In this document: piece by piece, positions 1,967 to 61,843 of the stretch | Layout: each line of letters opens with the position of its first letter | How positions within the stretch are numbered: the first letter of the stretch is position 1 | Source: a virus | Strand: one strand, 5' to 3' | DNA length: 64,000 nt | IMG/VR virus record: IMGVR_UViG_3300006793_000013 | The notes under the pieces: model-generated | The model's input: only the letters and a program-made list of their open reading frames with translations | What the model was told of the DNA's origin: nothing | Databases searched by the model: none | Position numbers and translations under genes: made by a program

Positions 1967-3145
1967 ATGAAAATTGGATTTATTGGACTTGGTAAATTGG
2001 GTATGCCTTGCGCAGAAGAGATTGCCAAAAAAGGACATGCAGTAATTGGATATGATGTAGATAAATCGTTAGATAGTGATTATGTTATAGTAGAAGATAC
2101 TATTAAAGACGTAGCATCAGAAGCAGATATTGTATTCGTTGCAGTGCCTACTCCACATGATCCAAACTATGACGGCAAAGCACCTACAGCACATTTAGAG
2201 CCTAAAGACTTTCAATACGATATTGTTATTGATTGTTTACAAGAAGCAAATAAGTATATGAATAAAAAACAAATGCTTGTTCTTATTAGTACAGTTTTAC
2301 CTGGCACAGTAAGGCGTGAGTTTGTACCTTTAATAACTAACACACGTTTTGTTTATAATCCTTATTTGATTGCTATGGGTACAGTTGCTTGGGATATGGT
2401 CAATCCTGAAATGGTTATGATTGGTACAGAAGATGGTACTGAAACCGGCGATGCTAAAGAGCTTAGAGATTTTTATGATACATGCATGGAGAACGATCCA
2501 AGATATGTAATTGGTACTTGGGACGAATGCGAATGTATCAAAGTATTCTATAATACATTTATTAGCACAAAGATTGGACTTGTAAATATGATACAAGACG
2601 TTGCTGAAAAGCAAGGTAATATAAACGTTGATGTAGTTACTACAGCACTTGCAGAAAGTACACAACGTATCATGGGGCCAAGTTACATGAAAGCAGGAAT
2701 GGGAGATGGTGGCAGTTGTCACCCAAGAGATAATATTGCACTTAGGTACATGGCAAAGAAACTAGATCTTGGTTATGATATTTTTGATGCAGTAATGAAT
2801 GCTAGAGAAGTTCAAGCGCAAAATGTTGCACAAAAACTTTGTGATATTGCAAAAGAAAAAGAACTTCCTATTCTTATTAATGGTATTGCTTACAAACCAG
2901 GTGTGCCTTATATAGATGGAAGTTATGCTTTACTAGTTGCACAGTATTGTACAGAGTACGGCTTTAATCCTATGCAAGTTGATCCGTTAGTATATGGTTC
3001 TGATCCAGGACCTTTTAGAGCATGTGTTCTTTTATCTCATCCAGAGCTTTATGTAGAACTATCAGACGACTCCGTTGTAGTTGATCCTTGGCGTTCTTAC
3101 ACTTCAGATAAACACGAAGTTATTCATTACGGAAATACAAGATAA
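1967..3145 (+). CDS. ugd: UDP-glucose/GDP-mannose dehydrogenase family protein
   Basis: N-terminal GLGKLG Rossmann motif, VAVPTP, YNPY, KVFYN, GDGGSCHPRD with catalytic Cys. Confidence 0.85.
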   Translation: MKIGFIGLGKLGMPCAEEIAKKGHAVIGYDVDKSLDSDYVIVEDTIKDVASEADIVFVAVPTPHDPNYDGKAPTAHLEPKDFQYDIVIDCLQEANKYMNKKQMLVLISTVLPGTVRREFVPLITNTRFVYNPYLIAMGTVAWDMVNPEMVMIGTEDGTETGDAKELRDFYDTCMENDPRYVIGTWDECECIKVFYNTFISTKIGLVNMIQDVAEKQGNINVDVVTTALAESTQRIMGPSYMKAGMGDGGSCHPRDNIALRYMAKKLDLGYDIFDAVMNAREVQAQNVAQKLCDIAKEKELPILINGIAYKPGVPYIDGSYALLVAQYCTEYGFNPMQVDPLVYGSDPGPFRACVLLSHPELYVELSDDSVVVDPWRSYTSDKHEVIHYGNTR

Positions 3146-7546: not shown

Positions 7547-8488
7547 CTAGGTTCCTATTGCATTACCAAACAAGTATACGTGTACCCTTGCGGCTACATT
7601 ATATCCTCTTTGAAATGCTTTTTGTGCAACTGCACCTGCACCTGCTGTTTGTTCTTCTTCTCTTGCACCTGTTGGCATAATCCATACTGGCCAATCAACA
7701 CCAACACTTCTAAATTTTTCAACTGCTTCTTCCATTTCATCCCACTCACGCTGTTTCGGACCTACAACAAATTTAAGTTGTCCTTTTGTAGATGCCTGTA
7801 AATATTCAGCAACAAGTTCGGGCTTGATAGCCTTTTCAGGTTTCTCACCTGATACAGTAAATAGTTTAGGACTACAACTGAAAAATATTTCTGTGTCAAT
7901 ACTCTTAGCCCATTCTAAAAATGGTTCTCTAAGTTTTTGTGTACCGTTAGTTTCAAATGTCATGCTACCAGGCAAATTGCCTTGTCTTTTTAATTCGTTA
8001 TATATACCTACCACTGCTTGTTGTCCTGTAACCATCAAAGGTTCGCCACCTGTAAAACACAAGTGTTGATGTTGTTTACTTACAGGATGTAAAAACTTAC
8101 CTTCTGGATTGCTATCATTCTTTATGCAGTCGACAATCTTATTTGCCATAGCAGTAGGAGTTTCTTGACCCATTAGTTTCTTAAACTTCTTAGCCCAAGT
8201 GTAACTACTATCACACCCTTTTTCCCATACAGGCAAGTCCTCAACACGTTTTACACTATCAACATCAAAGTCCTCAAACGGCAATTCATATGTATCTGGA
8301 TTAGTTGGATCTAATTGTCCAAACCCATTACATTGTAAATTGCACAAGAAGAATCTAATCCAAGCAGTCGGAACTCCTGTGTAATGTCCTTCTCCTTGAA
8401 TACTATAAAATATTTCAGAATAGTAAAACTTTTTTTCTATTGTTTTACTAAAGTCGTGTTGTTCGAGTGTCTGTATTTTATCGTTCAT
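7547..8488 (-). CDS. queE: 7-carboxy-7-deazaguanine synthase (radical SAM)
   Basis: SEIFYSIQGEG, CNLQC...GCDS, FTGGEP, FETNGT, SCSPK, LKFVV, RVHVYLFG; start moved to MNDKIQ at 8488. Confidence 0.85.
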   Translation of the reverse strand: MNDKIQTLEQHDFSKTIEKKFYYSEIFYSIQGEGHYTGVPTAWIRFFLCNLQCNGFGQLDPTNPDTYELPFEDFDVDSVKRVEDLPVWEKGCDSSYTWAKKFKKLMGQETPTAMANKIVDCIKNDSNPEGKFLHPVSKQHQHLCFTGGEPLMVTGQQAVVGIYNELKRQGNLPGSMTFETNGTQKLREPFLEWAKSIDTEIFFSCSPKLFTVSGEKPEKAIKPELVAEYLQASTKGQLKFVVGPKQREWDEMEEAVEKFRSVGVDWPVWIMPTGAREEEQTAGAGAVAQKAFQRGYNVAARVHVYLFGNAIGT

Positions 8489-8494: not shown

Positions 8495-8524
8495 ATTATA
8501 CCTTCTTTCCACCAGGTTTGTCAA
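8495..8524 (-). promoter_or_regulatory. sigma70-type promoter, leaderless for queE
   Basis: TTGACA-18-TATAAT then 6 nt (AGTACT) and ATG. Confidence 0.75.
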
Positions 8525-8895: not shown

Positions 8896-9270
8896 TTAAT
8901 ATTTTTGCTTTGATGGGATGACGCCTCTGACGCCTCCTTTCGGATCTTCCATGTCCCCATTACGACGGAATATTAAATGTACATGTGGATACATGACTGT
9001 TTGTCCTGCACTTTCACCTACATTTAAACCTATATTGTAACCTGTGATATTAGTCTTTTCACTTGCAACATTATCATAACCCATAGTAATAGCAAAGTTA
9101 AAACATTTCATAATGTTTTCTTGTGTTGCTTCTTTGGGTACAACTAATAAATGTCCTTCGGTTACAGGATACTTGTCACGAAAAACAGTAAAGTCACGTG
9201 TGTCTATTTCAACTTCTGTCCACGGTGCTCTTTGTTCTTCTCTTGCTATTTGTAAAGTATCAGCCTTCAT
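8896..9270 (-). CDS. HIT-family nucleotide hydrolase
   Basis: YPVTEGHLLVVPK, GYNIGLNVGESAGQTV, YPHVHL (first His of the triad is Tyr). Confidence 0.8.
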   Translation of the reverse strand: MKADTLQIAREEQRAPWTEVEIDTRDFTVFRDKYPVTEGHLLVVPKEATQENIMKCFNFAITMGYDNVASEKTNITGYNIGLNVGESAGQTVMYPHVHLIFRRNGDMEDPKGGVRGVIPSKQKY

Positions 9271-9499: not shown

Positions 9500-9610
9500 T
9501 TACTCCTGATCTTTTTTAGTGTTATCGTTCTTTTCCATATTTTCCATGAGCTTCTCACCAACTATTCTATCCTTAGTGATTCCTAGCCATGTCTTAATAA
9601 ACTTAACCAT
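9500..9610 (-). CDS. small hypothetical protein (36 aa, not in ORF track)
   Basis: MVKFIKTWLGITKDRIVGEKLMENMEKNDNTKKDQE; fills the gap and overlaps the upstream stop. Confidence 0.45.
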   Translation of the reverse strand: MVKFIKTWLGITKDRIVGEKLMENMEKNDNTKKDQE

Positions 9611-9989
9611 GTTCAATATACCTCTTCAATTCTTTATCTTCTACATCTGATGGTATATCATTTTTATAAAATATTCTGTAACTATCATTACCGTATTTTC
9701 CTATACCATATAATTCAGTTGCATCTTCTCCGTTCCAGTTTTCAATCTGGACACTCATCTTATATATTCTTTTTGCTCTTACACGTTGCATACCTAACGG
9801 CTCTAATAATTCTTCTAGCATAGGAATAGTACAACTACGCAATAAACTATGTGCAGTAGGATACTTGTTAAACAATTTTGTAAGAACAGGCTTTGTTTGT
9901 CGCCTGTTTACTTGATTTAAACAAATAACACCAACCATATGTTGCCATACGTTTGATACTTGTTGTTGTACCATTAAATCTTCACGCAT
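9603..9989 (-). CDS. HhH DNA glycosylase, MBD4 catalytic-domain-like
   Basis: ELYGIGKYGNDSYRIF nearly matches the MBD4 HhH/Asp motif; VICLNQ, PLGM..RAKRI. Confidence 0.75.
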   Translation of the reverse strand: MREDLMVQQQVSNVWQHMVGVICLNQVNRRQTKPVLTKLFNKYPTAHSLLRSCTIPMLEELLEPLGMQRVRAKRIYKMSVQIENWNGEDATELYGIGKYGNDSYRIFYKNDIPSDVEDKELKRYIEHG

Positions 9990-10515
9990 AGTCAGCAACA
10001 TTTTCCCAAGGATAAACTAACCAAACATCTTCCTCGGCTTTATTAACTTCATGACATGTATAATCTACCTTATCAAAATCACTTGCTAGGTTTTCAGTAA
10101 GTGATGCAAAGCGAACATTTTCTTGCCAAATGTCTTGCCATGCTTCGCTATCAGGTAAACAACCTGCTTTCCAATCTTCCATAATCCAATTAAACGTAGC
10201 ACCAGTGTCATTGATGTCATCTATAATAAGAATATTTTTACGTGCTTTAGGATAACTTTTGCCGTCACCATAACCAAATGCATCTTCTGCCATCCAACAG
10301 TTGCTTTCGCTATCACGACTATCATCACGTAAACTTACTTTCAATGCTTCGCAACGTATGCCAGTCATGTTACTAATAATAGTAGCAGGAACATTCCCAC
10401 CTCTTGTTATTCCTACAATATAATCAGGCTTCCAGTTACTTTTGTACATCTGATTGACTATGCTTACACACATTTTTTCAACATCTTGCCAACTATAATA
10501 GTGCTTCTTAATCAT
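9982..10515 (-). CDS. type I phosphoribosyltransferase (Gpt-like)
   Basis: GITRGGNVPA, ILIIDDINDTGATF PRPP-binding loop, C-terminal WLVYPWE. Confidence 0.85.
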   Translation of the reverse strand: MIKKHYYSWQDVEKMCVSIVNQMYKSNWKPDYIVGITRGGNVPATIISNMTGIRCEALKVSLRDDSRDSESNCWMAEDAFGYGDGKSYPKARKNILIIDDINDTGATFNWIMEDWKAGCLPDSEAWQDIWQENVRFASLTENLASDFDKVDYTCHEVNKAEEDVWLVYPWENVADYA

Positions 10516-11547: not shown

Positions 11548-12231
11548 TTAACAAGCAAACTGTTGTTGCAGTTTAACATTATCCATAAACTCTTTCTTAG
11601 TTGCAGGATCATTTTTAAATGCACCACGTAATACAGTTGTTTGTGTTAAACTGCTATGAGCTCTAATACCTCTGTTTTCGCAACAACCATGTGTTGCTTG
11701 TACATAGACACCTACATTTTCACTGCCTGTTTCTTTTTGTATTGCGTTTGCAATCATAACATTTAGTTCTTCTTGTAGTGTTCCACGCATAGCACACCAT
11801 TGTGCAATCCTTGTGTATTTGCTAAGACCAAGTAACTTAGGACCAGCAATAATACCAATGTATGCTACACCTTTAACAGTCTGATGATGATGTGAACACA
11901 AACTTGTAAGTTCACTACGTACAACTAGCATACCTTCATAACCATCTTCGATGTAGTTAGGAAAACTACTTGGGTTAGGCATTGGATTATAACGTCCACT
12001 CATAATTTCATTGATGTACATCTTTGCCATACGCCTTGCAGTATCTTGACTGTTAGGATCTGTTTTTGTATCAATCAACAAGTGCTGTAACACATTTTCA
12101 AAAGCAGGAACTGCTTCTTCGATAAGTTGTTGTTTATCGCCTTCTTGAAGCACTTCACTGATATTGTCATTCGCCCAATATCTAAGACCTGCTTCTTCTA
12201 AGCGTTTTTTAATTTCTTTTACTTTTTCCAT
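11548..12231 (-). CDS. folE: GTP cyclohydrolase I
   Basis: DTARRMAKMY, SLCSHH, GLSKYTRI, LQEEL, HGCCENRG. Confidence 0.95.
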   Translation of the reverse strand: MEKVKEIKKRLEEAGLRYWANDNISEVLQEGDKQQLIEEAVPAFENVLQHLLIDTKTDPNSQDTARRMAKMYINEIMSGRYNPMPNPSSFPNYIEDGYEGMLVVRSELTSLCSHHHQTVKGVAYIGIIAGPKLLGLSKYTRIAQWCAMRGTLQEELNVMIANAIQKETGSENVGVYVQATHGCCENRGIRAHSSLTQTTVLRGAFKNDPATKKEFMDNVKLQQQFAC

Positions 12232-12275: not shown

Positions 12276-13316
12276 TTATTTTAGCACCTTTAGTAGATCA
12301 TTGCAACTGAAATATTTTTCATTCAGTGTTTCTACTTGTTTATTTAGGCTAGGAAGAAAACTTTTGTAATTTTCCATATAGTCAATTACACGTTCTTTCA
12401 CAGCCTCTCTATTGGAAATATAGGTTTTCCAATCTATTGTCCAATTACTAGGATATTTGAAAGGCAGCAAACCCATTTCAGTATAACTTAATCTGTCTGG
12501 TACCATAGGCAATGCTCCAACAAGAGCACCTTCATACCAACTAATACCTAGTGTTTCTTGCAAGTTAGCACTAAACACAAGTTTTGCTTCTCCTAGTAAG
12601 TTGTGATATTCGTTCTTTGATAGTTCACGTTCTTGACAAACTACCCATTCATATTGTGGAAGTTGATCAGCAAGATCACGGAATATTTCAACTTGCTTTT
12701 CAGGAGCAATCCTATGAGGGAATAAAATTAAGTCACGCTTTGGCATTCCTTTGTACATAGTTAATGTACTATCCATATAATGAAATGGCCAACCAGTTTG
12801 TACAACTTTAGATCTATCCAGTTCTGGAAATGATTGAAAGAACATATCTATATGAAACTCTGTTGCAAAATAATTATGATCATAACATTCAAACATACTA
12901 CGTTCTGCATTTCTAACCCAAGGCTTATCACCTATTAGTCTGCCTAAAAAATCTTGTGGATCATAACTACCAGCATGCCACATACCACCAATGCGAATGT
13001 TAATACCCAATAGTTCTGCCATGTAGCGTAATTGTACCACTGTAGGATTCCAGGCATCAGTGTACAGAAAATAATCGCCGTCCTTAACTTCTCCATTACA
13101 AAACGCCTCTGCAATTTGCTCTAGTTGTTTACTTTTATAAACATTAGTTCCGCCAAAGTTAAGAAACGCCCCAGGTGTTGTAGCCTGAGGCGTATCTCCT
13201 CCGTTAACTACATGAACGTCATGACCGTTGGCTTTTAGCAGTTTAGGAAATTCAGTTTTCCACTGCTTAGTGTAACGTGTTTCGACTGCTTCTAAGTCAA
13301 CAAGCCATATTTTCAT
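12276..13316 (-). CDS. GT-B fold (GT4-like) glycosyltransferase
   Basis: FPHRIAPEKQ and QETLGISWYEG match GT4-type R..PEK and ExFGxxxxE motifs. Confidence 0.7.
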   Translation of the reverse strand: MKIWLVDLEAVETRYTKQWKTEFPKLLKANGHDVHVVNGGDTPQATTPGAFLNFGGTNVYKSKQLEQIAEAFCNGEVKDGDYFLYTDAWNPTVVQLRYMAELLGINIRIGGMWHAGSYDPQDFLGRLIGDKPWVRNAERSMFECYDHNYFATEFHIDMFFQSFPELDRSKVVQTGWPFHYMDSTLTMYKGMPKRDLILFPHRIAPEKQVEIFRDLADQLPQYEWVVCQERELSKNEYHNLLGEAKLVFSANLQETLGISWYEGALVGALPMVPDRLSYTEMGLLPFKYPSNWTIDWKTYISNREAVKERVIDYMENYKSFLPSLNKQVETLNEKYFSCNDLLKVLK

Positions 13317-13517
13317 CTAGTTTCTCCGTTTGTTAAATTTGTTTCGAAACGCCCTCTTATGATTGTTGCGATTCTCGAAAGCCCTCCATGCGCGACTCTC
13401 TTTTTTATAGAGATCTTTTTCATTAAACTTAAAGCCGTTGTAACGACAAAAGTCTCTATACAAGTCAAGATCATTGAAGATCTTAACCACCTCAGGGCGG
13501 TCTTGCCAGTAACCCAT
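13317..13517 (-). CDS. hypothetical protein
   Basis: 66 aa with GGAG SD. Confidence 0.55.
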   Translation of the reverse strand: MGYWQDRPEVVKIFNDLDLYRDFCRYNGFKFNEKDLYKKESRAWRAFENRNNHKRAFRNKFNKRRN

Positions 13518-13529
13518 TTTAGGTCTCCT

Positions 13530-14018
13530 TTAATAACTAGCATACTCAATGTGGGCACCGTTCTCTCCATCTTCGGAGACATCGATGTGGACTTCACGTC
13601 CGGGATATTTGTTTGTAATTTGATGCCACAAATCATCTGACATCATTTCACAGGACTTATAGTCAAGTTCTAATGTTTTTTCTGCGTATAACTTCTCCAT
13701 CCAACGTTTAAACTGAATAAACTCAATATCTCTGTCATTGTGTGTTACAGCGATACCTACTTTAAAATGGAATATGTGTCTGTGTGGATAACCCAAAAAA
13801 CTTACATCATATTCATCACCTGTTGCAAGACTAGGATCATCTAGTGCCGCAGGATACTTGTGGATACCTTCTTTTGTAAAGGTTACCCAAATCATTCGCT
13901 TTGCGTTTTGCAATGCATTTTCTTTGCCTTGTTTCATATCTTCTTCTCTCATTCTACGCCCCATGTAGTCGTAATAACGTTCTTGTTTCATTATAGCACC
14001 CTTTAATTCTAGTGTCAA
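13530..14018 (-). CDS. dpdL: QueD-like T-fold protein, DpdL-like
   Basis: L-GYP-HRH-I-F fits LxxxHRHxF; DIEFIQFK parallels QueD DFxxxK; lacks QueD CxxxHGH Cys; start uncertain. Confidence 0.6.
   Translation of the reverse strand: MTLELKGAIMKQERYYDYMGRRMREEDMKQGKENALQNAKRMIWVTFTKEGIHKYPAALDDPSLATGDEYDVSFLGYPHRHIFHFKVGIAVTHNDRDIEFIQFKRWMEKLYAEKTLELDYKSCEMMSDDLWHQITNKYPGREVHIDVSEDGENGAHIEYASY
13990..14018 (-). promoter_or_regulatory. sigma70-type promoter
   Basis: TTGACA-17-TATAAT; the -10 box overlaps the ATG of MKQERY. Confidence 0.65.
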
Positions 14019-14539
14019 TCATTATCTACGATATCATCATTTTCATATTCACGCCAAGGTGTAAATTTTGAACGGTCCATTAGTTCGTGTATACTGTGTG
14101 TCCAAACACCTGGATTTGTTGCTTTAAAATCTTTGTCATCAATTTTAATTGTAGCATTGTACCCAAACTGTTCAATATAAGGAATAGGTACACGCAGTTG
14201 CGGAATAAAGTTGTCAAATTCAATTAAAGAACTTTCAAGCATATCTTCCGCATTTGCAATTGGAATGTCCAAAGTGCAACAAATGTCATCATCTAGGAAT
14301 GGTTCGATCATAGCCTCCCACTCACCGTAGTCTGAATCTTGACTTGGTTGAAAACTGTGGTTTGCACCAAAGAAGATATGTTCGCAATCGTTCTTTGAAT
14401 ACTGGCTGGCAATTTCATCAACGCTTTGAAGTCCTGTTACGAACAATGTTTTCCTACCATATGCAGGAGTATGTTCTACTTCAACACCAACAAAATATGT
14501 TGCGTCACTGCTTGTGCCTTGTTTGTATGACCTTTTCAT
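14015..14539 (-). CDS. hypothetical protein inside the deazaguanine locus
   Basis: 174 aa, acidic, HIFFGANHSF segment. Confidence 0.65.
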   Translation of the reverse strand: MKRSYKQGTSSDATYFVGVEVEHTPAYGRKTLFVTGLQSVDEIASQYSKNDCEHIFFGANHSFQPSQDSDYGEWEAMIEPFLDDDICCTLDIPIANAEDMLESSLIEFDNFIPQLRVPIPYIEQFGYNATIKIDDKDFKATNPGVWTHSIHELMDRSKFTPWREYENDDIVDND

Positions 14540-14548
14540 AATTACTTC

Positions 14549-14830
14549 CTATTGACTTTCGTTACCAAAGTAGTGCGTAAATGCACCTTTGACGTTATTA
14601 AAGATACCAACAATTTGTTCTTTATTATCTGCAAGTTGGTCTTTACCCTGTTGCCAACTATCTTTTTGATATGCTACAGTATCGTTATATTCTTGAATAA
14701 CAAACTGTGATACCTTGTTGTTTACCGCAAAGTCTTTTGCGCCTTCAACATTCTTGATAATTGGATTATCATTTGCCTGTGCTATTGTTGCAAACATAAT
14801 TGCTGCAACTATTGTTACTAGTTTCTTCAT
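14549..14830 (-). CDS. secreted/periplasmic protein
   Basis: Sec-type signal MKKLVTIVAAIMFATIAQA-N. Confidence 0.6.
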   Translation of the reverse strand: MKKLVTIVAAIMFATIAQANDNPIIKNVEGAKDFAVNNKVSQFVIQEYNDTVAYQKDSWQQGKDQLADNKEQIVGIFNNVKGAFTHYFGNESQ

Positions 14831-16375
14831 TTATGCCTCCGTTAGTTCACTTTCTAGTTTATCTAGTTCAGTGTCTTCTCTGTCGTCAGTCCATGGAGTT
14901 TCTTCTTTACCTTCATCATCAACTTCAACGAACAACGAATTCGAAATGTTTGTAACACCTCCACGTAGTCTTGCACCTTCTAAGTTTTTAAGGAAACTGT
15001 CTGCTTCTTTAATCATTGCAAACGCTGCCTCTTTAGTAGGTTGTTCGAACAGTTCTTCAATAAAACGATCGAAGTACAAAATGTTACGTGGTACCCATTC
15101 CGAATATTCATCACTCTTATCTGCGTCTTTAACTTTACGCCATAGTCTCCAATCTGGTCTTACTTTCTTAATTTCAATGTCAGTAAGTTGATTAGCACGT
15201 TGTACTGCTACAATGTGACAGTAAACATTATGTGCCATCATTAATGCATAACCAAAACTATCCCAACTAGTTTTACCTTCTTTACCAATCTTGTTCAACA
15301 TGCCAGGAGCATAATGACAAATGTCAGCAATAGATAAACGTCTACCAATTTCACTTTCGAATGGAAATGGAATATCATGTTGATTAGCAAGTGCTTTATT
15401 ATCTGGAGCCTTGTCCATAATCACTGACCAACGCTTTGCTGTGTGTTGTGCATTTGTATACACAAGACCGTGTGCAGTTGCAATAAACGGACTAGCACAG
15501 TCAAAACTTACTGTAAAGTTTTCGTTGATGTGTTTACGTACTTGTCTTTGAATACTAGTTAAGTAACATGACCAATCAAGTTGTGCAGTACCTAAGAAGT
15601 GCATCCAGTCCTTGCCTTCTAACATACCATCAAATTTCAAAGTCATTAACCTACGTAATGTAATAGGCATCTTGCACATATTAGCACCGCCCATTGCCCA
15701 ACCTTCACATGCTTTATCGCCCCAAACGTTTGGATCGGAGAACTCTTTAACACCTTCGTACCACTTCTCAGCAGTATCCCAGTCTGATCCTTGTAAAACG
15801 TTTAAGAACTTTGTAGCACCAAGTCTACGTTCTAACCAATACTTGTTATTGTAACGTGTCTTGTCTAAGCAATCTTCAAAACTTTTAAGTCCTGTTTTAG
15901 GAGCATGAATATGATCACAAGCCCAAGTCGGAACATCAAGTAGCATTGACCAATCTGCTGTAAGCTCTAGCCAATTAAGAATATCATCACGTGTTTTGTT
16001 TGCGGCAGCACCTTCAAAGTTTAACCAATCAAATTTAAGAACACCTTTACCAACCTGATAACCACCCGAGTCACCTAGTATCATAGTGTTATTTCTATCA
16101 CGTTCTTGGACCATGGCATCTTGTGTCATAGTCTTTTCTAAGTTTAATTGTGCGTGACCTGCGGAATACAACCCATATTTGTATGTGTAGTATCCTGCGT
16201 CTGCATTAAGGAAGTTCATACCTTCTATTCCACGATCAAATCCTTTAGGAATACGATCGTTCGGAACAAACTCTCCTTGCCTCTGTTTAGCAATATATGT
16301 GCTAAAGAAAGAACTAATCGCTGGTAGATACACAGCATAGTCCTTTTGTAATGGTGTTAAGTTGACTGGTTTCAT
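14831..16375 (-). CDS. dpdA: TGT-fold 7-deazaguanine DNA transglycosylase (DpdA-like)
   Basis: GDSGGYQ, MLLDVP, VLQG, GWAMGG, HFLG, SFDCASP align with TGT catalytic motifs; no Zn-binding CxCxxC. Confidence 0.75.
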   Translation of the reverse strand: MKPVNLTPLQKDYAVYLPAISSFFSTYIAKQRQGEFVPNDRIPKGFDRGIEGMNFLNADAGYYTYKYGLYSAGHAQLNLEKTMTQDAMVQERDRNNTMILGDSGGYQVGKGVLKFDWLNFEGAAANKTRDDILNWLELTADWSMLLDVPTWACDHIHAPKTGLKSFEDCLDKTRYNNKYWLERRLGATKFLNVLQGSDWDTAEKWYEGVKEFSDPNVWGDKACEGWAMGGANMCKMPITLRRLMTLKFDGMLEGKDWMHFLGTAQLDWSCYLTSIQRQVRKHINENFTVSFDCASPFIATAHGLVYTNAQHTAKRWSVIMDKAPDNKALANQHDIPFPFESEIGRRLSIADICHYAPGMLNKIGKEGKTSWDSFGYALMMAHNVYCHIVAVQRANQLTDIEIKKVRPDWRLWRKVKDADKSDEYSEWVPRNILYFDRFIEELFEQPTKEAAFAMIKEADSFLKNLEGARLRGGVTNISNSLFVEVDDEGKEETPWTDDREDTELDKLESELTEA

Positions 16376-17194: not shown

Positions 17195-19864
17195 TTAATC
17201 AAAATCAAACAATTTGTTAAAGTTGTTATCACTTCTTGTAGAGCTGATATCCCACTCTAACACACCAATAAGGTTACCTAGCTTTTCATCAATTACTGAA
17301 TTTTCCATTTCAGCATCGTTGAAAGGCAGTTTTTTAAACCATTCTGGCAAACGTAATTCATCTACAGGATACGCAACACTAGTGAATCCCATAGGGTTAT
17401 CTTTAACTTTACAAACAATTACTTTCGCACCATCTGTAATAGTTATGGAATATTTGTCATCTTCCATACGCTTTAAGGTATTCCAATTAATACTTGCACG
17501 AACATGTCCAGGCATATTTGCTTTACCTTGTTTCTTTTCTTTGTTGCCGTACTCAGTAATCTTGTTTGCACGTTTCGGACTACCTTTCTCCCAACCAGGT
17601 CTTGTTTTAAATTCAGTTCTAAATTCTGTAATGTAATCTAGTACGTCTTGTTGTTCTTTACCTGCTAGTACCATTTCTAATACATTACTCAAAAAGTCTT
17701 GAATAACAACAGGAGTATCAGAACGTTTCAAGTCTAAACCCATTGCTTTGATCTTACCTGGCTTTCCTTCAGTATCTACACGCTTACCTTCTACGTCATA
17801 GTACAGAACTGCATATCTTTTCTTTGTAATAAACAGACCTTTACTTGCAACAATCTCTCTTGCTGCCGCAATAACATCTGATCTGCTTTTAGGACAATGG
17901 AAAGTTTCAGCCATAAACTTAGGAAACGTAGTATTTGCTTCATCGCAGATTTGATCATACAATGCCATAACACTATCTTTATCCCAAGGAATGTTTCCTT
18001 TATCAATCTCTTCTTTTAACGTACTGTATGCACTAAAGTAAGATGAATCAGTATCACCATACACAATTGACTTACCTGTATGGTTGTACTCGCCTGTAAT
18101 AATCTCATTAACCTTTGCACTCATATGCTTAACAATCTGTCTACCTGTAAGTGTAGTTGACTGTCCAATACGGTTATCAAAGAATCTACAACCTGGATTA
18201 AGAATAGCACCATACAAACTGTTAAGTAGAATCTTTTTAACAAGTTGTCTTTTTGCCCAGTACTCTTCTTCGATAGGATTCTTTGCTTTGATTGCATCAC
18301 GCATCTTTGCCTGCATTTCTTTACGTTCTTTATACCAACGTTTTAGCAGTCCAGGAATAACACCTTCTTTTTCATATGTAAAGATGGTACCATTAGCACT
18401 TAGCATCCAAGGCTGATTGCTTTCAAAGATTAAATCATATACTTGTGCCGCACTAATTGTATCGCTTTTGTCGCTGTCTTCCCAGTCGATAGTAATCTGC
18501 CTACCTACTTCACGTTCCATAACAGAGTCAAACTCAACAGAACCAAATTGTCCTTCCCAAGCATTTGCAAAACTTTTACCTTTTGCCATTTCGCCTTCAA
18601 TACGTGCTTTTGTTCCGTCTTGTCTTAGTTGTCCTACAATTGTTTCAGGACCCATATTCAAAGCTCTAATAACAGATGGATACAGTGAATTCAAGTCAAC
18701 ACTACCAATCCATTCATGAATACCTTTCTTAGGATATGCAACATAAGCACCTGCCGCAGGCTCACTACCTGGTTCACGTCTTACTCTGTTAGGAACAATA
18801 AACCCACGTCTGTGTGCTTCGTTAATAATACCTTGTTCTGTAACAGCAACAGCACCCATAGTAGTTTGAATAAGAACTGTATTCTCATGTGCAACAGTAT
18901 TAGCAAGATCAATAAATTTAAGTTTCTTATCTAGTTTGTCAAGTAGTGCAGTATCTTGAATGTTATATTCAATAAATGTTCTAAAGTCGTTGTTGTAAAG
19001 TGAATCAAGAGAACCTTCATAAACTGTTTTTGTTTCGCCAACTTCTAGTTCGCCAATAGCATCAAGTCGATATGTATGACGTTCTTCGTAGTTATATTTT
19101 CTATAAAGTTCTAGTGAGTCAACATGCACTCTACCAATTAAATCATATGTAACAGATGTTTTACCAAACTTTTCATACTCACGTTTTTTAGGATACTGAT
19201 TCCAAAGACATAATCTTTTTGTATCTTCTTTGCTTAACGTTTTTGTAATTCTATTAACTGTGTACGGAATATCAAATCCTTCGCTGTTCCAGCCACTTAG
19301 TACATCAGCATCTTGTATAAGATCTAAAAATGCATCTAGCATTTCGCTTTCTTTTTCAAACAGCACAACATTGTCAATGCCTTCAATAGTTTTCTTTGCT
19401 TCTTCCATTGAAAGTGTCTTAGGCGGAATAGCAAGACATACCATTGTTTCCATCCACTGCATGTATACAGCAATTGAAGTAATAGGCATAAAAGCATCTT
19501 CAGGAGATGCATAACCTCGCTCAGGATCAAAGTCAACCTCAATATCAAAAAAAGCAACGTTTAGTTTAGGTGCGTCTTGATTGAGATAGTTGTCCTCAAG
19601 CATTCTATAAATTGGATTGATGTCGCTCTCATAAAGTTTTTTGTTGCTGTGAATAGCAAGTTCTTTACGAAGTTCTTTGATGTTTTTACAAGTTACCCTT
19701 GATAATGGTTTGCCATAGATGGATTTATATTTTCCTCTAGGATCCTCGTAATAAAAAATATGTCTGGGATTGTATTCTCGATAATGACGTTTGCCTTTAT
19801 CGTCACGTTCAACAACGTTGATGGTGTCTTGCCCTCTATCATAGAAAGCGTCTACGTAACTCAT
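17195..19864 (-). CDS. family B DNA polymerase (gp43-like)
   Basis: FFDIE and WNSEGFDIPY exonuclease motifs; DLNSLYPS, KILLNSLYG, YGDTDS, KKRY; C-terminal FNKLFDF. Confidence 0.97.
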   Translation of the reverse strand: MSYVDAFYDRGQDTINVVERDDKGKRHYREYNPRHIFYYEDPRGKYKSIYGKPLSRVTCKNIKELRKELAIHSNKKLYESDINPIYRMLEDNYLNQDAPKLNVAFFDIEVDFDPERGYASPEDAFMPITSIAVYMQWMETMVCLAIPPKTLSMEEAKKTIEGIDNVVLFEKESEMLDAFLDLIQDADVLSGWNSEGFDIPYTVNRITKTLSKEDTKRLCLWNQYPKKREYEKFGKTSVTYDLIGRVHVDSLELYRKYNYEERHTYRLDAIGELEVGETKTVYEGSLDSLYNNDFRTFIEYNIQDTALLDKLDKKLKFIDLANTVAHENTVLIQTTMGAVAVTEQGIINEAHRRGFIVPNRVRREPGSEPAAGAYVAYPKKGIHEWIGSVDLNSLYPSVIRALNMGPETIVGQLRQDGTKARIEGEMAKGKSFANAWEGQFGSVEFDSVMEREVGRQITIDWEDSDKSDTISAAQVYDLIFESNQPWMLSANGTIFTYEKEGVIPGLLKRWYKERKEMQAKMRDAIKAKNPIEEEYWAKRQLVKKILLNSLYGAILNPGCRFFDNRIGQSTTLTGRQIVKHMSAKVNEIITGEYNHTGKSIVYGDTDSSYFSAYSTLKEEIDKGNIPWDKDSVMALYDQICDEANTTFPKFMAETFHCPKSRSDVIAAAREIVASKGLFITKKRYAVLYYDVEGKRVDTEGKPGKIKAMGLDLKRSDTPVVIQDFLSNVLEMVLAGKEQQDVLDYITEFRTEFKTRPGWEKGSPKRANKITEYGNKEKKQGKANMPGHVRASINWNTLKRMEDDKYSITITDGAKVIVCKVKDNPMGFTSVAYPVDELRLPEWFKKLPFNDAEMENSVIDEKLGNLIGVLEWDISSTRSDNNFNKLFDFD

Positions 19865-24296: not shown

Positions 24297-24802
24297 TACA
24301 TCTTAACGCAGTTGTCTACTGTTTTGCCACCCTTCTTCTTGGTGCCCATTCTTTTATATCCTTTCCAACATACTTTGCCGTCAACGCCTTTTTGCTTTTC
24401 TTCGTTGATGCTTTCGTACTGTTGTTGAATATGCTCTGGCATTGCTGTGAATCTTGGCTTAGCACATTCTGGACAAAATGATTCTTCTTCCTCGTGTCCT
24501 GGTTTATCCATGTCTGGATTATCAGGTGGATTTTTAACTTTGTCTAAAACGTCCTTTTGACTTTCTGCCCACTTCATTAATTTCATAATTTTTTCTTGTG
24601 GCAGTTTACAACGTTTAACTAGTTCTTCAATATTTCTTGCTCCGCCTGGCGCACCATAGCGTGTTAGTTCGTCACCTACTCTTGAAAGCACTAATGATAA
24701 TGCATCGTCTTTAGTAGTGACAGCCTTGTCCATAAGAACTCTGCCGATACGAGATAGCTTCGCTCCATGTGGATGATCATATGCTGATTCTTTATTCATC
24801 AT
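24296..24802 (-). CDS. hypothetical modular protein
   Basis: Likely start MMNKES at 24802; CPEC and terminal CWKGYKRMGTKKKGGKTVDNCVKM. Confidence 0.6.
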   Translation of the reverse strand: MMNKESAYDHPHGAKLSRIGRVLMDKAVTTKDDALSLVLSRVGDELTRYGAPGGARNIEELVKRCKLPQEKIMKLMKWAESQKDVLDKVKNPPDNPDMDKPGHEEEESFCPECAKPRFTAMPEHIQQQYESINEEKQKGVDGKVCWKGYKRMGTKKKGGKTVDNCVKM

Positions 24803-25412
24803 TTTCCCCTGTGTTATCATTGATCCCCATACCTTTTCTAACCGCAGCGTATAATTCATCTGCATGTTCTCCTGCACCGGTATGTTGTGCAAATTTGTTT
24901 ATGTCTCCGTTAGCAGCATCGGCTCTTGCCATTGTTCCACTAATACCTTCTACGCCATCTGAACCATCTTCACGTTGTCCGCTAGATTCAAAATTCATTG
25001 TTTCAAATTTATAGTAACCGTGTCCTTTTCCTTCGACACCGTTATAATCTTTTATAAGTTTAGACATCATCTCAAGACGATCACTTCCTGCAACAAATGT
25101 TATATGATTGTAACCTCTTTCATGTAATGAAGTACAAATTTTAGGTAGTGTATTCAAGTCTGTGTTTTCTACAACGTTGTTTGCAAAGTCAGGATGTACT
25201 TTTCTAATAAAGTCTACTTTGGTTGAATAGTCTAAAGGATTCTTTTTTGCGTCTTGTGTTTGGCTAGTATATATTTCTAATTCGCCACCAGCTTTCTTCA
25301 TTGACTTAAAAACTTCTTTATGTCCAAGTGTAGGTGGATTGAATCTGCCAAAGCAAAAAGTCATATGCTTATCGGCATCATCTTCAGTTAAAAATATTTC
25401 ATTAATTCTCAT
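24792..25412 (-). CDS. HIGH-family nucleotidyltransferase (cytidylyltransferase/NMNAT-like)
   Basis: FGRFNPPTLGH, KNPL..KVDF, VAGSDR, ISGTMAR; MRINEIF N-terminus. Confidence 0.75.
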   Translation of the reverse strand: MRINEIFLTEDDADKHMTFCFGRFNPPTLGHKEVFKSMKKAGGELEIYTSQTQDAKKNPLDYSTKVDFIRKVHPDFANNVVENTDLNTLPKICTSLHERGYNHITFVAGSDRLEMMSKLIKDYNGVEGKGHGYYKFETMNFESSGQREDGSDGVEGISGTMARADAANGDINKFAQHTGAGEHADELYAAVRKGMGINDNTGENDE

Positions 25413-26533: not shown

Positions 26534-27244
26534 CTATTTACCTGTTTTTACATATTTACGTACAGTGCCTATAAGGTCGTTACAGCGCAATCTAAGCATC
26601 AGTAGCGTACTATCGTTATCAACGTATATCCAACGTCTAGTGTTGAATATATCACGTTTAAGAAGCCAGTTATAGGTAGCATCAGTAAATGCAATAGCAG
26701 GTTTTCGTGAACGGCACCAGTCTGCTAAACTTTCAAGCTCTCCGAATGTTAAAGATTTAGGAGTTTTAAGATCTATCTGATAGTTATACATGCTGTGTGG
26801 TAATTCTTTTACAAATATTTCTTGATCACTATAAAGCAAAGTGTCTTCCATACCAGGAGCAGGCTCAAACCTGTTTCTAGTTATATCTGAAAACTCATAA
26901 CAAAGTGTTCCATAAAGTGTTTTGTTATTTGTATACACATCTAATATATCAGTTTCAATTCGAATAGTTACTTCATTCTTTGGTACTGAATTTATAATAC
27001 CTAAAAAAGATATCCATGTTTGACTATGCTTTAATATTGTATGAGCATTTCTTGTACGCCAAGTTGCTTCACTATAATCTGCTCCATCTGACTGTGGAGG
27101 CGGTCGTAAACCGGTCGCAAAGTCCAAGATCTCTTGATGACCGAGTGTACGTAAACTATATGCACCAGGTAACGTTAAACTAACTTTGTAGATATACTTG
27201 TTATAGAACTTCTTTTTAGTTTTCTTTGCTGTCTTAAGCATCAT
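26534..27244 (-). CDS. hypothetical protein
   Basis: 236 aa, overlaps the clpA stop. Confidence 0.6.
   Translation of the reverse strand: MMLKTAKKTKKKFYNKYIYKVSLTLPGAYSLRTLGHQEILDFATGLRPPPQSDGADYSEATWRTRNAHTILKHSQTWISFLGIINSVPKNEVTIRIETDILDVYTNNKTLYGTLCYEFSDITRNRFEPAPGMEDTLLYSDQEIFVKELPHSMYNYQIDLKTPKSLTFGELESLADWCRSRKPAIAFTDATYNWLLKRDIFNTRRWIYVDNDSTLLMLRLRCNDLIGTVRKYVKTGK
26535..26540 (-). promoter_or_regulatory. putative late promoter, leaderless
   Basis: TAAATA-GTAAT-ATG(26529). Confidence 0.55.
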
Positions 27245-29564
27245 TACTAGCCTGCGCCTTAGCAGCCAGCTTCTGTGCTTTACGTTCTTCTTTAGTCAAA
27301 GGCTTTGGCATAGGAGTAATTGTAAACGCTGGACCGTCTTTATCGATTGATACAGCAACTTTACCCCCGTCAACTAAATCTCCAAACAACACTCTCCTAC
27401 TTAAAGGTGTTTTAATTGTTTTATCAATTAATCTACCTAAAGGCCTTGCACCCATCTTAGGATTGTAACCTTTCTTAGATAACCAATTAACAGTATCTTC
27501 GTCAAGTGTAATTGCAATGTGCTTCTCTTTTAGTTGTGTATTAAGTTCTTTAATAAACTTATGAACAATACTTTTAACTACATCAGTAGATAGTTTAGCA
27601 AACTTAACTGTACCGTCTAATCTATTTCTAAACTCTGGAGCAAAAAACTTTTTAACTGCTTTATCATCTTCCGAGTCTTTCTCGTTATCAGCAAAGCCAA
27701 TTAATTTTGATTCATTATCAGCAGCACCTAAGTTACTTGTCATAATAAGAATAGTGTTACGTCCATCTGCACGTTTACCATTTGATCCTGTAACAAAACC
27801 GTTGTCCATAAACTGTAGCAAAATGTTTGATACATCTTTGTGTGCTTTTTCAATTTCGTCTAACAACAATACAGCATTAGGTGTTTCTTGTAACTTGTTA
27901 ATAAGTTGGCCAGCGTCATCATCAAATCCTACATAACCTGGAGGAGCACCAATTAATCTTGCAACACTGTGTTTTTCTTGATACTCTGACATATCAAAAC
28001 GTATTAGTGACATACCCATTTTCTCTGCAAGTTGTTTTGCTGTTTCTGTTTTACCTGTTCCTGTTGGTCCTAAGAATAAGAAACTACCAATTGGCTTGTC
28101 AGGATCTTTCATTCCACTTTGTGCAACAAAGATCTTATCAAGAATAGATTCAACTGCTTTGTCTTGTCCGAATACTGCTTTCTTCATTGACGCATCAAGT
28201 CCAGCAAGATTGTTACTTTCTTTTTGCGAAATAGTTTCTAGCGGCATACTTACCATTTTAGCAAGTTCGTATGTTACTTGTTCAATGTCAACAATTTGTG
28301 CAACTGTTTCAGTTTCGTCAGTTTCATTTAACTTGTATCTTGCTGAAGCACAATCAATAATATCAATTGCTTTGTCAGGTAACTTTTTATCAGCCATGTA
28401 CTTGACAGATAAGTTTACTGCTTGTTGAATTGCTTCATTTGTAATCTTAACATTATGATGCTGTTCGTAGTACTTACGTAAGCCTTTAATAATTTTTACT
28501 GTAAGATCTGCTGTTGGTTCGTCAATAGTTACACGTTGGAACCTACGCATTAATGCTCTATCTTTTTCAAAAGATTTTCTATACTCTTCCCAAGTAGTAG
28601 AAGCAATAACTTTCATGTTGCCTTTTGTAAGTGCAGGCTTCAGCATATTTGCTAAGTCGTTTGACTGTCCTTGTCCGCCTGAACCAGCACCACTCATCAT
28701 GTGTGCTTCATCAATGAATAAGATAATTTTACCTTTACGCTCAAGGGCCATTAGTACTGCCTTAATACGTTCTTCAAAGTCACCTCTATACTTACTACCA
28801 GCAACTAAAGAACTAATGTCTAAACTAAACACTAAATGATCTTGAATAAACTTAGGTACTTTCTTTTCATGAATCTTACGTGCAAGACCTTCAGCAATAG
28901 CAGTCTTACCAACACCTGGATCACCAACCATTAGTACGTTTGCTTTGTTACGTCTTGCTAATACTAATTCAATTTTTTCAATTTCTTCGTCACGTCCGAT
29001 AACAGGATCAATGACTCTTTGCTTTGCCTTCATAGACAAGTTAGTACAGAATTGATTAATAATTCTATCTAATTGATCTGGGCTTAGATTGATATCTTCT
29101 TCTCCGCCACCTTCAAACATTTCTTCACCAATATGATGTGCTTGGAAATGCTCTACAAATTTCTGTTTATCAATTCCACCTTTTGCTAAGAAGTAAAATG
29201 CAAAAGAGTTTTTCTCGCTCATAACACTAATGATTACGTCAGCAACTTCAATTTGATTACGTCCACTAAACAATACTTGTGTAAAGCATCTATTTAAAAC
29301 ACGTTCAACAGATGCAGTTTTCTTAGGATTTATATTCTTATCCTTAGAAACAATATCACCTAAGTTGTTTTTTAAGTAATGCTCTAGGTTCTTTTTAATA
29401 AAGTCAACATCAGCACCAAATTCTTTAAGACCACCTGCTGTATCTGGGTCAGCAAAAATTGAGTACACCAAATGCTCAATAGTAATATGTGTGTGCGTGT
29501 GGTTCTGCGCAACTACTACAGAGGCATCAAAAATCTTTTGTAATTGTTTACTAGGTTCAATCAT
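27234..29564 (-). CDS. clpA: ClpA-type AAA+ unfoldase
   Basis: Clp N-domain, Walker A GDPGVGKT and GPTGTGKT, FIDEAH/LLDEIEK, IGF loop, no ClpB middle domain. Confidence 0.93.
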   Translation of the reverse strand: MIEPSKQLQKIFDASVVVAQNHTHTHITIEHLVYSIFADPDTAGGLKEFGADVDFIKKNLEHYLKNNLGDIVSKDKNINPKKTASVERVLNRCFTQVLFSGRNQIEVADVIISVMSEKNSFAFYFLAKGGIDKQKFVEHFQAHHIGEEMFEGGGEEDINLSPDQLDRIINQFCTNLSMKAKQRVIDPVIGRDEEIEKIELVLARRNKANVLMVGDPGVGKTAIAEGLARKIHEKKVPKFIQDHLVFSLDISSLVAGSKYRGDFEERIKAVLMALERKGKIILFIDEAHMMSGAGSGGQGQSNDLANMLKPALTKGNMKVIASTTWEEYRKSFEKDRALMRRFQRVTIDEPTADLTVKIIKGLRKYYEQHHNVKITNEAIQQAVNLSVKYMADKKLPDKAIDIIDCASARYKLNETDETETVAQIVDIEQVTYELAKMVSMPLETISQKESNNLAGLDASMKKAVFGQDKAVESILDKIFVAQSGMKDPDKPIGSFLFLGPTGTGKTETAKQLAEKMGMSLIRFDMSEYQEKHSVARLIGAPPGYVGFDDDAGQLINKLQETPNAVLLLDEIEKAHKDVSNILLQFMDNGFVTGSNGKRADGRNTILIMTSNLGAADNESKLIGFADNEKDSEDDKAVKKFFAPEFRNRLDGTVKFAKLSTDVVKSIVHKFIKELNTQLKEKHIAITLDEDTVNWLSKKGYNPKMGARPLGRLIDKTIKTPLSRRVLFGDLVDGGKVAVSIDKDGPAFTITPMPKPLTKEERKAQKLAAKAQASNDA

Positions 29565-30083
29565 TTATTTTTGTCTCTTTTTTAATTTCTTCATAGCTAA
29601 TTGTAACTTCAACCGACTCACTTTGTCAACAAAACAAATGCCATTTAGGTGATCTAATTCATGCTGAAAGCATTTAGCAAGATAACCTTCTACTTTTGCT
29701 TCTTTCGTTTCGCCTTTTGAATTCTGATATTGTGCAACTATCATTTTAGGTCTCTGCAAATGTAACCATAAACCCGGAAAGCTCAAACAGCCTTCTTTAT
29801 CTAAAACATGTTCCTCACTTGCTTCTAAAATGACAGGATTAAAAACACAGAACGGTTCTGGAAAACCTGGTACGTTTTTTGATCCTATAGCAAACACTCT
29901 CTTTTTAATATTTAACTGGTTAGCAGCAAGACCAATGCCGTTGTGATTTAGCATAAAGTTACACATATCAAACTCTAATTTTTCTGGGTCTAGCTCTTCT
30001 TTATCAAAGTCCCATACTTCACTAGATTCATTTAGTGCTTTGTGTAAGCCTAATTTATAATCTAAATCTAATTTATAGTCCAT
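29565..30083 (-). CDS. def: peptide deformylase
   Basis: GIGLAANQ, EGCLS, HELDH. Confidence 0.95.
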   Translation of the reverse strand: MDYKLDLDYKLGLHKALNESSEVWDFDKEELDPEKLEFDMCNFMLNHNGIGLAANQLNIKKRVFAIGSKNVPGFPEPFCVFNPVILEASEEHVLDKEGCLSFPGLWLHLQRPKMIVAQYQNSKGETKEAKVEGYLAKCFQHELDHLNGICFVDKVSRLKLQLAMKKLKKRQK

Positions 30084-35980: not shown

Positions 35981-36330
35981 TAGTCTATTTGTATAGCAGG
36001 TATTGCTTTAAATAATTTTGTTTTATCTTCTTTGTAGTTTTCTTTTGCAAAATCTACATAGTCTTCCATTGGCTCTTGTTCGTCTGTAATGTTTGGCCAA
36101 TTAGCATCATTTGAAAAATACTGGTTATGTTTAAACCATTTGTTTTCTTCATCGTCAGTTTGCCATATTGCATCTTCAGGACATTCAGGAACACATACAC
36201 CACAATCAATACATTCATCAGGATTGATTACAAGCATGTTTGCACCTTCGTAAAAACAATCTACAGGGCAAACACTTACACAAGTTGTGTGTTTACAGTT
36301 AATACATTTGTCGTCAACTACGTGTGTCAC
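35980..36330 (-). CDS. fdxA: FdxA-type ferredoxin
   Basis: [18 protein letters not shown] and [12 protein letters not shown] motifs. Confidence 0.9.
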
Positions 36331-55874: not shown

Positions 55875-55896
55875 AATGTAATGTGATTTTTCGTTT

Positions 55897-55938
55897 ATTA
55901 TACAACAACTTAGTGAAGTTGTCAACCAATTGTATTTA
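55897..55938 (-). promoter_or_regulatory. tandem early and late promoters for iscU
   Basis: TTGACA(55925-20)-17-TATAAT(55902-897), TAAATA at 55938-33. Confidence 0.65.
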
Positions 55939-58798: not shown

Positions 58799-58801
58799 TG
58801 A

Positions 58802-61393: not shown

Positions 61394-61843
61394 CTATCCT
61401 TCGTAGATTGCTGAATTGGCACCATGCTCTGAACATTCAACACTTACACAATAACAACGATGATTTGTTTTTTCTCTAATTAAATCGTTCGCAAAGTTAA
61501 ATGCATGTTCCGCAAATTTTTCTGCACCAACACCATCGAATTGTCTAATCTCTGCAAGTCCTAATGTTTCTAAACGTAGCAGTTCATCTTTCATTGGATC
61601 TATTTTATCAATACAAGTTTTGTGATCAAAACTATCTTCAAGCCAAGCCTTCAGCGGTTTAAGTCCACCAAAGTCAACTGCCCAATTTTTATTATCTAGA
61701 TCATTACATCCAAAAGTAAATTTAAATGCTAAACTATAACCGTGTAGCAAATGACAATGTGAATGATCTGCGTTCGGCTGCCTAAACACCGCACTAAGGC
61801 CAATGTTATGACCATAAGTTTTTGTACTAAAGTATTTTCCCAT
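61394..61843 (-). CDS. queD: 6-carboxy-5,6,7,8-tetrahydropterin synthase
   Basis: CHLLHGY (CxxxHGH variant), VDFGGLK, FDHK, E.GANSA. Confidence 0.8.
   Translation of the reverse strand: MGKYFSTKTYGHNIGLSAVFRQPNADHSHCHLLHGYSLAFKFTFGCNDLDNKNWAVDFGGLKPLKAWLEDSFDHKTCIDKIDPMKDELLRLETLGLAEIRQFDGVGAEKFAEHAFNFANDLIREKTNHRCYCVSVECSEHGANSAIYEG

Follow-up and report, generated by a model that had tools for sequence, protein, structure and literature searches.

The window analysed here, a 64,000-nucleotide stretch of virus DNA (IMG/VR record IMGVR_UViG_3300006793_000013), encodes a glycosyltransferase (GT; 12276..13316, minus strand, 346 amino acids) in the middle of a gene run for 7-deazaguanine modification of DNA, a module that belongs, as a variant, with the Dpd deazaguanine systems already described. 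The enzyme has a GT-B fold and is GT4-like, and in many phages its gene is tightly linked to that of DpdL, a QueD-like protein predicted to decarboxylate 7-carboxy-7-deazaguanine (CDG). We see an even chance that the GT is a working part of this DpdL-type module and that a sugar-bearing deazaguanine ends up in the phage DNA, including the case in which the acceptor is something other than 7-deazaguanine (DG).

All genes around the GT locus are on the minus strand of this AT-rich window (G+C about 36%), and coordinates below refer to that strand unless stated otherwise. Downstream of a family-B DNA polymerase (17195-19864) follow genes for a 245-amino-acid clamp-like protein, a DpdA-like enzyme, a 93-amino-acid protein with a signal peptide, a 174-amino-acid protein, DpdL, a 66-amino-acid open reading frame (ORF), the GT and FolE, with intergenic gaps of 0-44 bases in the core run. 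After FolE come three small ORFs, a phosphoribosyltransferase (PRT) resembling XGPRT, a short endonuclease-III-like protein, a HIT protein, QueE and a 5'-3' exonuclease. An earlier, sequence-only reading of this DNA had described a co-directional deazaguanine gene run with queE downstream and queD at 61.4 kb, and all the genes that it named were found on the minus strand where it had placed them.

The structure model of the GT (pLDDT 95.6, pTM 0.92) has the two Rossmann domains of the GT-B fold, with VIA Z scores of 25.4 (6kih) and 24.8 (BshA) over approximately 300-311 aligned residues and a Foldseek probability of 1.0. Z scores of 24-25 against sucrose-phosphate synthase, BshA and MshA place its relatives among the retaining GT4/GT5/GT20 enzymes. 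Among 40 diverse family members the EX7E motif is kept (E254 in at least 90%, E262 invariant), the basic residues on the diphosphate side, R202 and K207, are nearly invariant and FPHRxxPEK is conserved; this EX7E/basic region of the family profile aligns with PDB entry 8xsg (E 1.8e-4). The window GT itself has no match to Pfam Glycos_transf_1, but 27 of the 40 members do, the best with an E-value of 3.5e-8. The fold, the retained EX7E motif and the family matches all agree with the assignment as a GT4-like glycosyltransferase in the sequence-only reading, and the protein looks like an active, catalytically intact enzyme of the predicted retaining type.

The N-terminal acceptor domain of the GT carries conserved aromatic residues (W19, Y15, W89, Y98 and W133). 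Such an aromatic-rich domain would suit a flat heterocyclic acceptor, which is only suggestive and does not tell DNA from a free base. Net charge was dropped as a clue to DNA binding, as the GT family is acidic (median pI 5.7) and the phage polymerase and DpdA are acidic too. The family is large, with more than 8000 metagenome homologues in 1211 clusters at 50% identity.

The linkage of the GT to deazaguanine genes was determined for all 64 GT family loci with at least 2.5 kb of flanking sequence on both sides, where distant branches of the family were sampled through cluster representatives and further scans of IMG/VR. DpdL is encoded in 62 of these 64 loci and lies within 3 kb of the GT in 60 of them; even for the 19 most divergent GT members it is within 3 kb in 15. 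The adjacency of GT and DpdL persists to GT identities of about 25% and is seen in phages that differ in polymerase and gene order. Rather than being unlinked to dpd genes elsewhere, GT homologues from several lineages stand in a context of DpdL, QueD, QueE, FolE and TGT-like genes (62 of the 64 loci). The 80 IMG/VR loci found with the GT share the conserved order polymerase, clamp, DpdA, 174-amino-acid protein, DpdL, 66-amino-acid ORF, GT, and then with interruptions PRT, FolE and QueE, but these are relatives of each other and carry little weight on their own.

The same association was found in cultured phages, which were searched with profiles built from the metagenomic loci. PA5oct encodes DpdA, GT and DpdL in a row with overlapping reading frames, followed further on by PRT and QueE. 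In ACP17, a T4-like Acidovorax phage of 156 kb, the order is QueD, FolE, the 174-amino-acid protein, DpdA, GT, DpdL and QueE, and stop and start codons of neighbouring genes overlap. Phosso has DpdL next to GT, with FolE and QueE further along. Burkholderia phage BCSR5, whose GT is only about 25% identical, encodes QueD next to DpdL, then the GT next to a TGT-like gene (DSGGFQ), then QueE and FolE. Two metagenomic loci have two GT paralogues each (L109 at 1572 and 9974; L110 at 4736 and 9974), of which one adjoins FolE and the other lies between DpdL and DpdA; this might mean that two sugars are used. In PA5oct, a 172-amino-acid protein encoded between DpdL and PRT (L001, 12416-12934) has at its N-terminus the Rossmann portion of NAD-dependent epimerases/dehydratases (E 6e-7) and could provide a reductase or sugar-modifying step of the module.

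DpdL occurs also without a detectable GT homologue, among others in the phiST group, Rhizobium phage RHph_I1_18, Aeromonas phage Ahp1 and the Vibrio phages Bakedbeans and D479. The DNA of phiST is fully substituted with plain 2'-deoxy-7-deazaguanine (dDG) (PMC10516641), and full dDG substitution is also reported for Vibrio phage VP1 (bioRxiv 10.1101/2025.10.29.685425). Since phiST makes dDG without a GT homologue, the GT is not needed for dDG. The relation is one-sided, with DpdL occurring also without GT and GT nearly always accompanied by DpdL, and therefore the GT looks like an optional step that is added after DpdL and depends on the DpdL pathway.

The window DpdL (13530..13964; the ORF is open to 14018) contains LGYPHRHIF, which fits the DpdL signature LxxxHRHxF that was set against the QueD motif CxxxHGH (PMC10516641) and that is retained in 95 of 104 ORFs of the family. 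It shares 33% identity over 123 columns with the founding DpdL, phiST gp040/CGPG_00067 (BLASTP, E 1e-18), and matches phrog_17812 (E 1e-33). Its true start is probably the ATG that follows a promoter match at 13990-14018, rather than the TTG at 14018. The sequence-only reading had taken DpdL as a CDG decarboxylase; the signature and the homology to the phiST protein agree with the identification as DpdL, while decarboxylation itself is a prediction. Escherichia coli with dpdL and dpdA of phiST or ACP17 gave no detectable dDG and the authors of that study considered that additional unidentified enzymes are perhaps needed (PMC10516641). In Vibrio phage Bakedbeans, DpdL forms the C-terminal third of a 383-amino-acid protein (gp176; L094, 6260-7411), whose N-terminal part of 250 amino acids has no family match.

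The enzyme that would insert the deazapurine is encoded at 14831..16375 (514 amino acids). Its AlphaFold model (pLDDT 77.7) is a (beta/alpha)8-barrel, and the best 50 Foldseek matches in the PDB are all Z. mobilis tRNA-guanine transglycosylase (TGT), with a probability of 1.0, an E-value of about 3e-8 and a target-normalised TM-score of about 0.5. The motifs GDSGGYQ (with D102), GWAMGG and FDCASP (with D292) do not vary among 14 relatives of 41-89% identity, in line with the earlier claim that the TGT catalytic motifs are intact; the equivalence of D102 and D292 to D102 and D280 of TGT was assigned by motif and not by residue-level structural alignment. At the sequence level, the protein has no match in Pfam (E up to 0.01) or NCBIfam (E up to 1), and direct sequence and profile searches against the PDB returned only noise. 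A related cluster in the ESM Atlas has PF01702 on 17% of its members, and phage DpdA3 and DpdA4 were likewise detected only through HHpred (PMC10516641). Similarity to phiST DpdA3 (gp042) is marginal (hhalign probability 16%, E 0.0017, 79 columns), and ACP17 DpdA aligns at DSGG with a probability of 6%. We therefore describe the window protein, on the basis of its model, as a DpdA-like enzyme of TGT fold that is not demonstrably one of the phiST DpdA3 subfamily (CGPG_00065 type). It is a candidate DNA-guanine transglycosylase, with exchange of guanine for 7-deazaguanine in DNA as its predicted function.

The genes for CDG synthesis are present in the window. FolE (GTP cyclohydrolase I) is encoded at 11548..12231 (PF01227, E 1e-37). 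QueE (CDG synthase) is encoded at 7547..8488, with a probable ATG at 8488 and an ORF that is open to 8584; its matches to the QueE N-terminal families were below the cut-offs, but it shares 39% identity with the QueE annotated in PA5oct and is also homologous to QueE of ACP17 and BCSR5. The QueD protein, of the 6-pyruvoyltetrahydropterin synthase (PTPS) family, is encoded at 61394..61843 (PF01242, E 8e-14) and is homologous to QueD of ACP17 and BCSR5. At the positions of a histidine and of CxxxHGH in canonical QueD, it has SAVFR and CHLLHGY, and its metal site may differ.

No QueC was found among 60 window ORFs scanned against Pfam, which comprised all ORFs of at least 190 amino acids and part of the shorter ones. 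It was also absent from the complete genomes of the GT-bearing phages PA5oct, Phosso, ACP17 and BCSR5 and from the nearest related record, which is 67 kb long. Of the earlier statement that the window lacks queC and queF, the first half holds for the scanned ORFs, and the second is shown in part, as ORFs below 190 amino acids were partly scanned. Genes for synthesis of 5-hydroxymethylcytosine (hmC) were likewise not seen among the scanned ORFs.

FolE, QueD and QueE make CDG, a chemistry that is established for these families. From CDG onwards we infer the chemistry from the gene content, and with it the atom that accepts the sugar, the nature of the donor and the end product. Without QueC, the route to preQ0 would be closed, and DpdL would convert CDG, by prediction to 7-deazaguanine. 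The DpdA-like enzyme would then swap guanine in the phage DNA for the deazapurine, and the GT would add a sugar from a nucleotide sugar to the DpdL-derived base. This transfer could take place on the base already in DNA, as the T4 glucosyltransferases do with hmC, or on the free base before insertion by DpdA. Virion DNA would then contain a glycosylated 7-deazaguanine, which might act as a second protective layer, shielding it from restriction enzymes and modification-dependent nucleases as well as from the DNA glycosylases directed at dDG. Sugar transfer to the deazaguanine had also been put forward in the sequence-only reading, which is borne out in part, namely in its gene content, its QueC-less DpdA/DpdL setting and its GT assignment. 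It is a tentative proposal, a little short of evenly balanced, that the DNA of PA5oct, ACP17, Phosso, BCSR5 and a highly abundant marine group of giant phages contains glycosylated 7-deazaguanine made by a GT4-like enzyme acting after DpdL, possibly with an unusual N- or C-glycosidic link or a new 7-substituent. A 2025 preprint reports that PA5oct DNA resists five restriction enzymes and that modified-G-specific nucleases target this phage; the preprint draws attention to the QueE and PTPS genes and does not name the base itself (PMC12191111). Our literature searches for glycosylation and 7-deazaguanine in phage DNA, whose coverage left out most subscription journals, returned no description of such a base.

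Several points weigh against a glycosylated deazaguanine. Plain dDG has no hydroxyl, and the acceptor would have to be an unusual one (N2, O6, a nucleophilic C7 or the CDG carboxyl), or else the product of DpdL would not be DG. The nearest solved structures to the GT have small-molecule or sugar acceptors, and DNA-acting glycosyltransferases of the T4 alpha-GT/beta-GT type were absent from the best 50 Foldseek or VIA matches, although they may still be related to it. The predicted activity of DpdL and the failed reconstitution in E. coli count here as well, and a glycosylated base in the GT-bearing phages is read from their genes. The absence of queC holds for the scanned ORFs of the window, and a distant queC could lie elsewhere in the same genome. 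Among the loci, two from one GT subclade lack DpdL: in L087 no deazaguanine gene stands within 8 kb of the GT, and in L095 the place of DpdL is taken by a DpdA-like gene and a canonical QueD (CxxxHGH), the latter adjoining the GT. Moreover, 45 of the 64 loci come from one marine clade, so the count overstates their independence.

The structural neighbours of the GT also fit an alternative that deserves serious consideration even if we regard it as unlikely on the whole. The GT could belong to the pathway but act on a small molecule, either a pterin intermediate or by-product of FolE and QueD, similar to the substrate of cyanobacterial tetrahydrobiopterin glucosyltransferase, or a transient glycosyl-CDG that would help DpdL, with plain dDG or its carboxylated counterpart dCDG as the DNA base. 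The best matches use small acceptors (malate for BshA, inositol phosphate for MshA, and sucrose-phosphate synthase), tetrahydrobiopterin glucosyltransferase (9v0l) is at rank 27, and an enzyme that assists DpdL would meet the suspicion of the DpdL authors that further enzymes were missing when ACP17 dpdL and dpdA gave no dDG in E. coli. Yet fold likeness within GT4 tells little about the acceptor, and full dDG substitution in phiST without a GT homologue means that the GT is dispensable for DpdL chemistry in general. Sugar transfer to the DpdL-derived base in DNA could also take a different chemical form, a variant that we think quite unlikely, in which DpdL, possibly together with the 174-amino-acid protein, makes a CDG derivative with a hydroxyl or other handle and the product is a new 7-substituted deazaguanine glycoside. 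Retaining GT4 enzymes normally use oxygen nucleophiles, of which dDG has none at C7, and the activity of DpdL is a prediction (PMC10516641). Both the marine clade and ACP17 have the 174-amino-acid protein alongside the module, a single metagenomic protein joins it to DpdL, and PA5oct has its short Rossmann protein of epimerase/dehydratase type between DpdL and PRT. On the other hand, the window DpdL has the full signature and its 33% identity is to the protein of a plain-dDG phage, the fusion is known from one sequence on a single contig and may be a read-through error, and no fold could be assigned to the 174-amino-acid protein.

We consider it improbable that the GT acts on something else altogether, be it host envelope glycans, virion proteins or a modified pyrimidine, and is near DpdL only through a shared early/replication module. 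The phage does glycan chemistry, as the window encodes KdsA-like, GT8-like, phosphomannomutase, UDP-glucose/GDP-mannose dehydrogenase and cytidylyltransferase proteins, and the 8 kb around the GT of L087 are free of deazaguanine genes. These other sugar genes are, however, 9 to 50 kb away from the GT, whereas the adjacency to DpdL is kept to about 25% identity and through different polymerases and gene orders, with frames that overlap those of DpdA and DpdL in ACP17 and PA5oct. In addition, the restriction data on PA5oct implicate G and not a pyrimidine (PMC12191111).

The closest known system to the one in the window is that of phiST (Cui, Hutinet et al., NAR 2023, PMC10516641), which also combines FolE, QueD, QueE, DpdL and a TGT-fold enzyme, lacks QueC and adjoins replication genes. 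It differs in having no homologue of the GT, the 174-amino-acid protein, the 66-amino-acid ORF or the PRT, with MazG and an ATPase instead, and its DpdA3 has 259 amino acids compared to 514 for the window enzyme. The alpha- and beta-glucosyltransferases of T4, which act on hmC, are comparable as phage enzymes of GT-B fold, and the window GT would likewise add an optional layer over a simpler modified base; they share no detectable sequence similarity with it, and its acceptor would be an analogue of a purine that offers no obvious hydroxyl. Eukaryotic tRNA contains mannosyl- and galactosyl-queuosine, and the mannosyltransferase is a GT4-family protein. Like the proposed base, these have a sugar on a 7-deazaguanine derivative in nucleic acid, possibly placed there by a GT4-type enzyme, but the nucleic acid is RNA and the sugar is on a cyclopentenediol hydroxyl, a side chain that is beyond a QueC-less pathway. 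The GT4 enzymes with small acceptors (BshA, MshA, sucrose-phosphate synthase and tetrahydrobiopterin glucosyltransferase) share the fold, the EX7E motif and a similar size with the window GT, at identities of 10-15%; the GT family differs as a phage-borne clade of its own, with an aromatic-rich acceptor domain and an exclusive deazaguanine context.

The remaining genes of the locus vary in how closely they follow the module. The acidic 174-amino-acid protein (14015..14539) is present in 70 of 82 related loci and has a homologue in ACP17 immediately upstream of DpdA (E 2e-25). Its residues E22, H54, D91, K132, D134 and D135 are invariant. Searches of Pfam (with five homologues included), NCBIfam, PHROGs and the PDB gave no match, and in the ESM Atlas its model was poor (pLDDT 0.31) with zero usable matches. 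One metagenomic protein of 327 amino acids (P0272) is a natural fusion of the 174-amino-acid protein with DpdL. That long forms are in general DpdL fusions was rejected, since only one of 11 is fused and the others have disordered tails; in these ten (the P0273-P0281 group) the tail is long and disordered, contains repeats of the motif LGLDP...K..LKPD and has a lysine-rich end. The 174-amino-acid protein could be the factor that was missing from the failed DpdL reconstitution. Between DpdL and the GT, the basic 66-amino-acid ORF (13317..13517, pI 10.1) is found in 68 of the 82 loci and was not seen in the cultured GT-bearing phages. The secreted ORF noted in the sequence-only reading is real (14549..14830, 93 amino acids with a clear N-terminal signal peptide; sequence MKKLVTIVAAIMFATIAQA), but its membership of the module was rejected, as homologues occur in only two of the 82 loci, and it is a variable insert.

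Further downstream, the accessory XGPRT-like purine PRT (9982..10515; PF00156, E 1e-10; NF006613 xanthine PRT, E 1e-11, below the cut-off) is present in 65 of the 82 loci and in PA5oct. It may recycle guanine that is freed by DpdA or take part in the synthesis of deazapurine nucleotides. The short protein of the endonuclease III/HhH-GPD type (9603..10001, 132 amino acids; PF00730, E 3e-6; TIGR01083, E 5e-5) occurs in 39 of the 82 loci. Because host nucleases that recognise modified bases employ an EndoIII domain that is inactive (PMC12191111), a role of this truncated protein as decoy or helper is conceivable. A nucleotide hydrolase/transferase of the HIT family is encoded at 8896..9270 (PF01230, E 4e-10).

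Promoter-like patterns precede several of these genes. A perfect sigma-70-type match (TTGACA-17-TATAAT with TG, 12/12) at 13990..14018 precedes DpdL, the 66-amino-acid ORF, the GT and folE, another at 8495-8524 is just ahead of the probable ATG of QueE at 8488, and a third, also a pattern match, is found before QueD at 61942. In total, seven perfect TTGACA-N16-18-TATAAT matches occur in the window, every one on the minus (coding) strand (61942, 55925, 38922, 38143, 20216, 14018 and 8524) with zero on the other strand, and three of the seven precede QueD, the DpdL-to-FolE genes and QueE. In related loci, such matches are near DpdL in 18 of 101 and near QueE in 24 of 70. The GT is probably co-transcribed with DpdL and FolE, and the pattern would agree with early expression together with the replication genes and separate from the other sugar genes of the window (58-63 kb and 2-3 kb).

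The family-B DNA polymerase of the window is 50% identical to that of Sinorhizobium phage Phosso, 46% to that of Agrobacterium phage Atu_ph07 and 44% to those of the GAP32/CBB group. A nucleotide search of the locus against cultured phages gave zero matches at the DNA level, while IMG/VR and other metagenome contigs, many of them from marine samples including Tara, share the locus with protein identities of up to 99%. Because of the kinship of the polymerase to giant phages, the lack of a cultured DNA match and the marine metagenome contigs, the window probably derives from an uncultured marine jumbo phage.

Elsewhere in the window, a sugar cluster surrounds QueD (58061-63372) and is a possible donor supply for the GT. 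It includes a phosphomannomutase-like protein (58061-58798), a weakly matching GT8/nucleotide-sugar transferase (59798-60613), a protein of the KdsA/DAHP-synthase family that adjoins QueD (60620-61387) and a protein whose N-terminus weakly resembles CST-I sialyltransferase (61939-62550). A UDP-glucose/GDP-mannose dehydrogenase (1967-3145, plus strand) and a cytidylyltransferase-like protein (24792-25412) represent further nucleotide-sugar capacity. A 2-oxoglutarate-Fe(II) oxygenase (36327-36914; PF13759, E 7e-17) is encoded 20 kb from the locus, and such an enzyme could be the source of a hydroxyl acceptor. The window also encodes a 539-amino-acid protein of the flavin-dependent tryptophan halogenase family (39538-41157; PF04820, E 2e-106) and, with coordinates that imply no strand, a ClpB-like AAA+ chaperone (27234-29564), DnaJ (30073-30882), a NifU-like scaffold (55446-55943) and a UvdE UV-endonuclease (57009-58058).

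To our knowledge, sugars on DNA bases have so far been found only on pyrimidines, namely in glucosyl- and arabinosyl-hmC, glycosylated 5-hydroxycytosine, base J and derivatives of 5-hydroxymethyluracil. If the proposed glycosylation of the DpdL-derived base is true, a sugar on a deazapurine would be a new chemical class in natural DNA and the first sugar-bearing base of purine type in any DNA. Several GT-bearing phages are in culture, which makes the proposal directly testable. In practical terms, it would matter for sequencing and cloning artefacts, for biotechnology as a new DNA-glycosylating enzyme and for phage therapy with PA5oct-like phages. A glycosylated deazaguanine could account for PA5oct DNA that resists restriction and is nevertheless sensed by modification-dependent nucleases, and it would be relevant to the arms race with the dDG-excising glycosylases that were described recently. 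Given the size of the GT family, the base would then be common in the sea.

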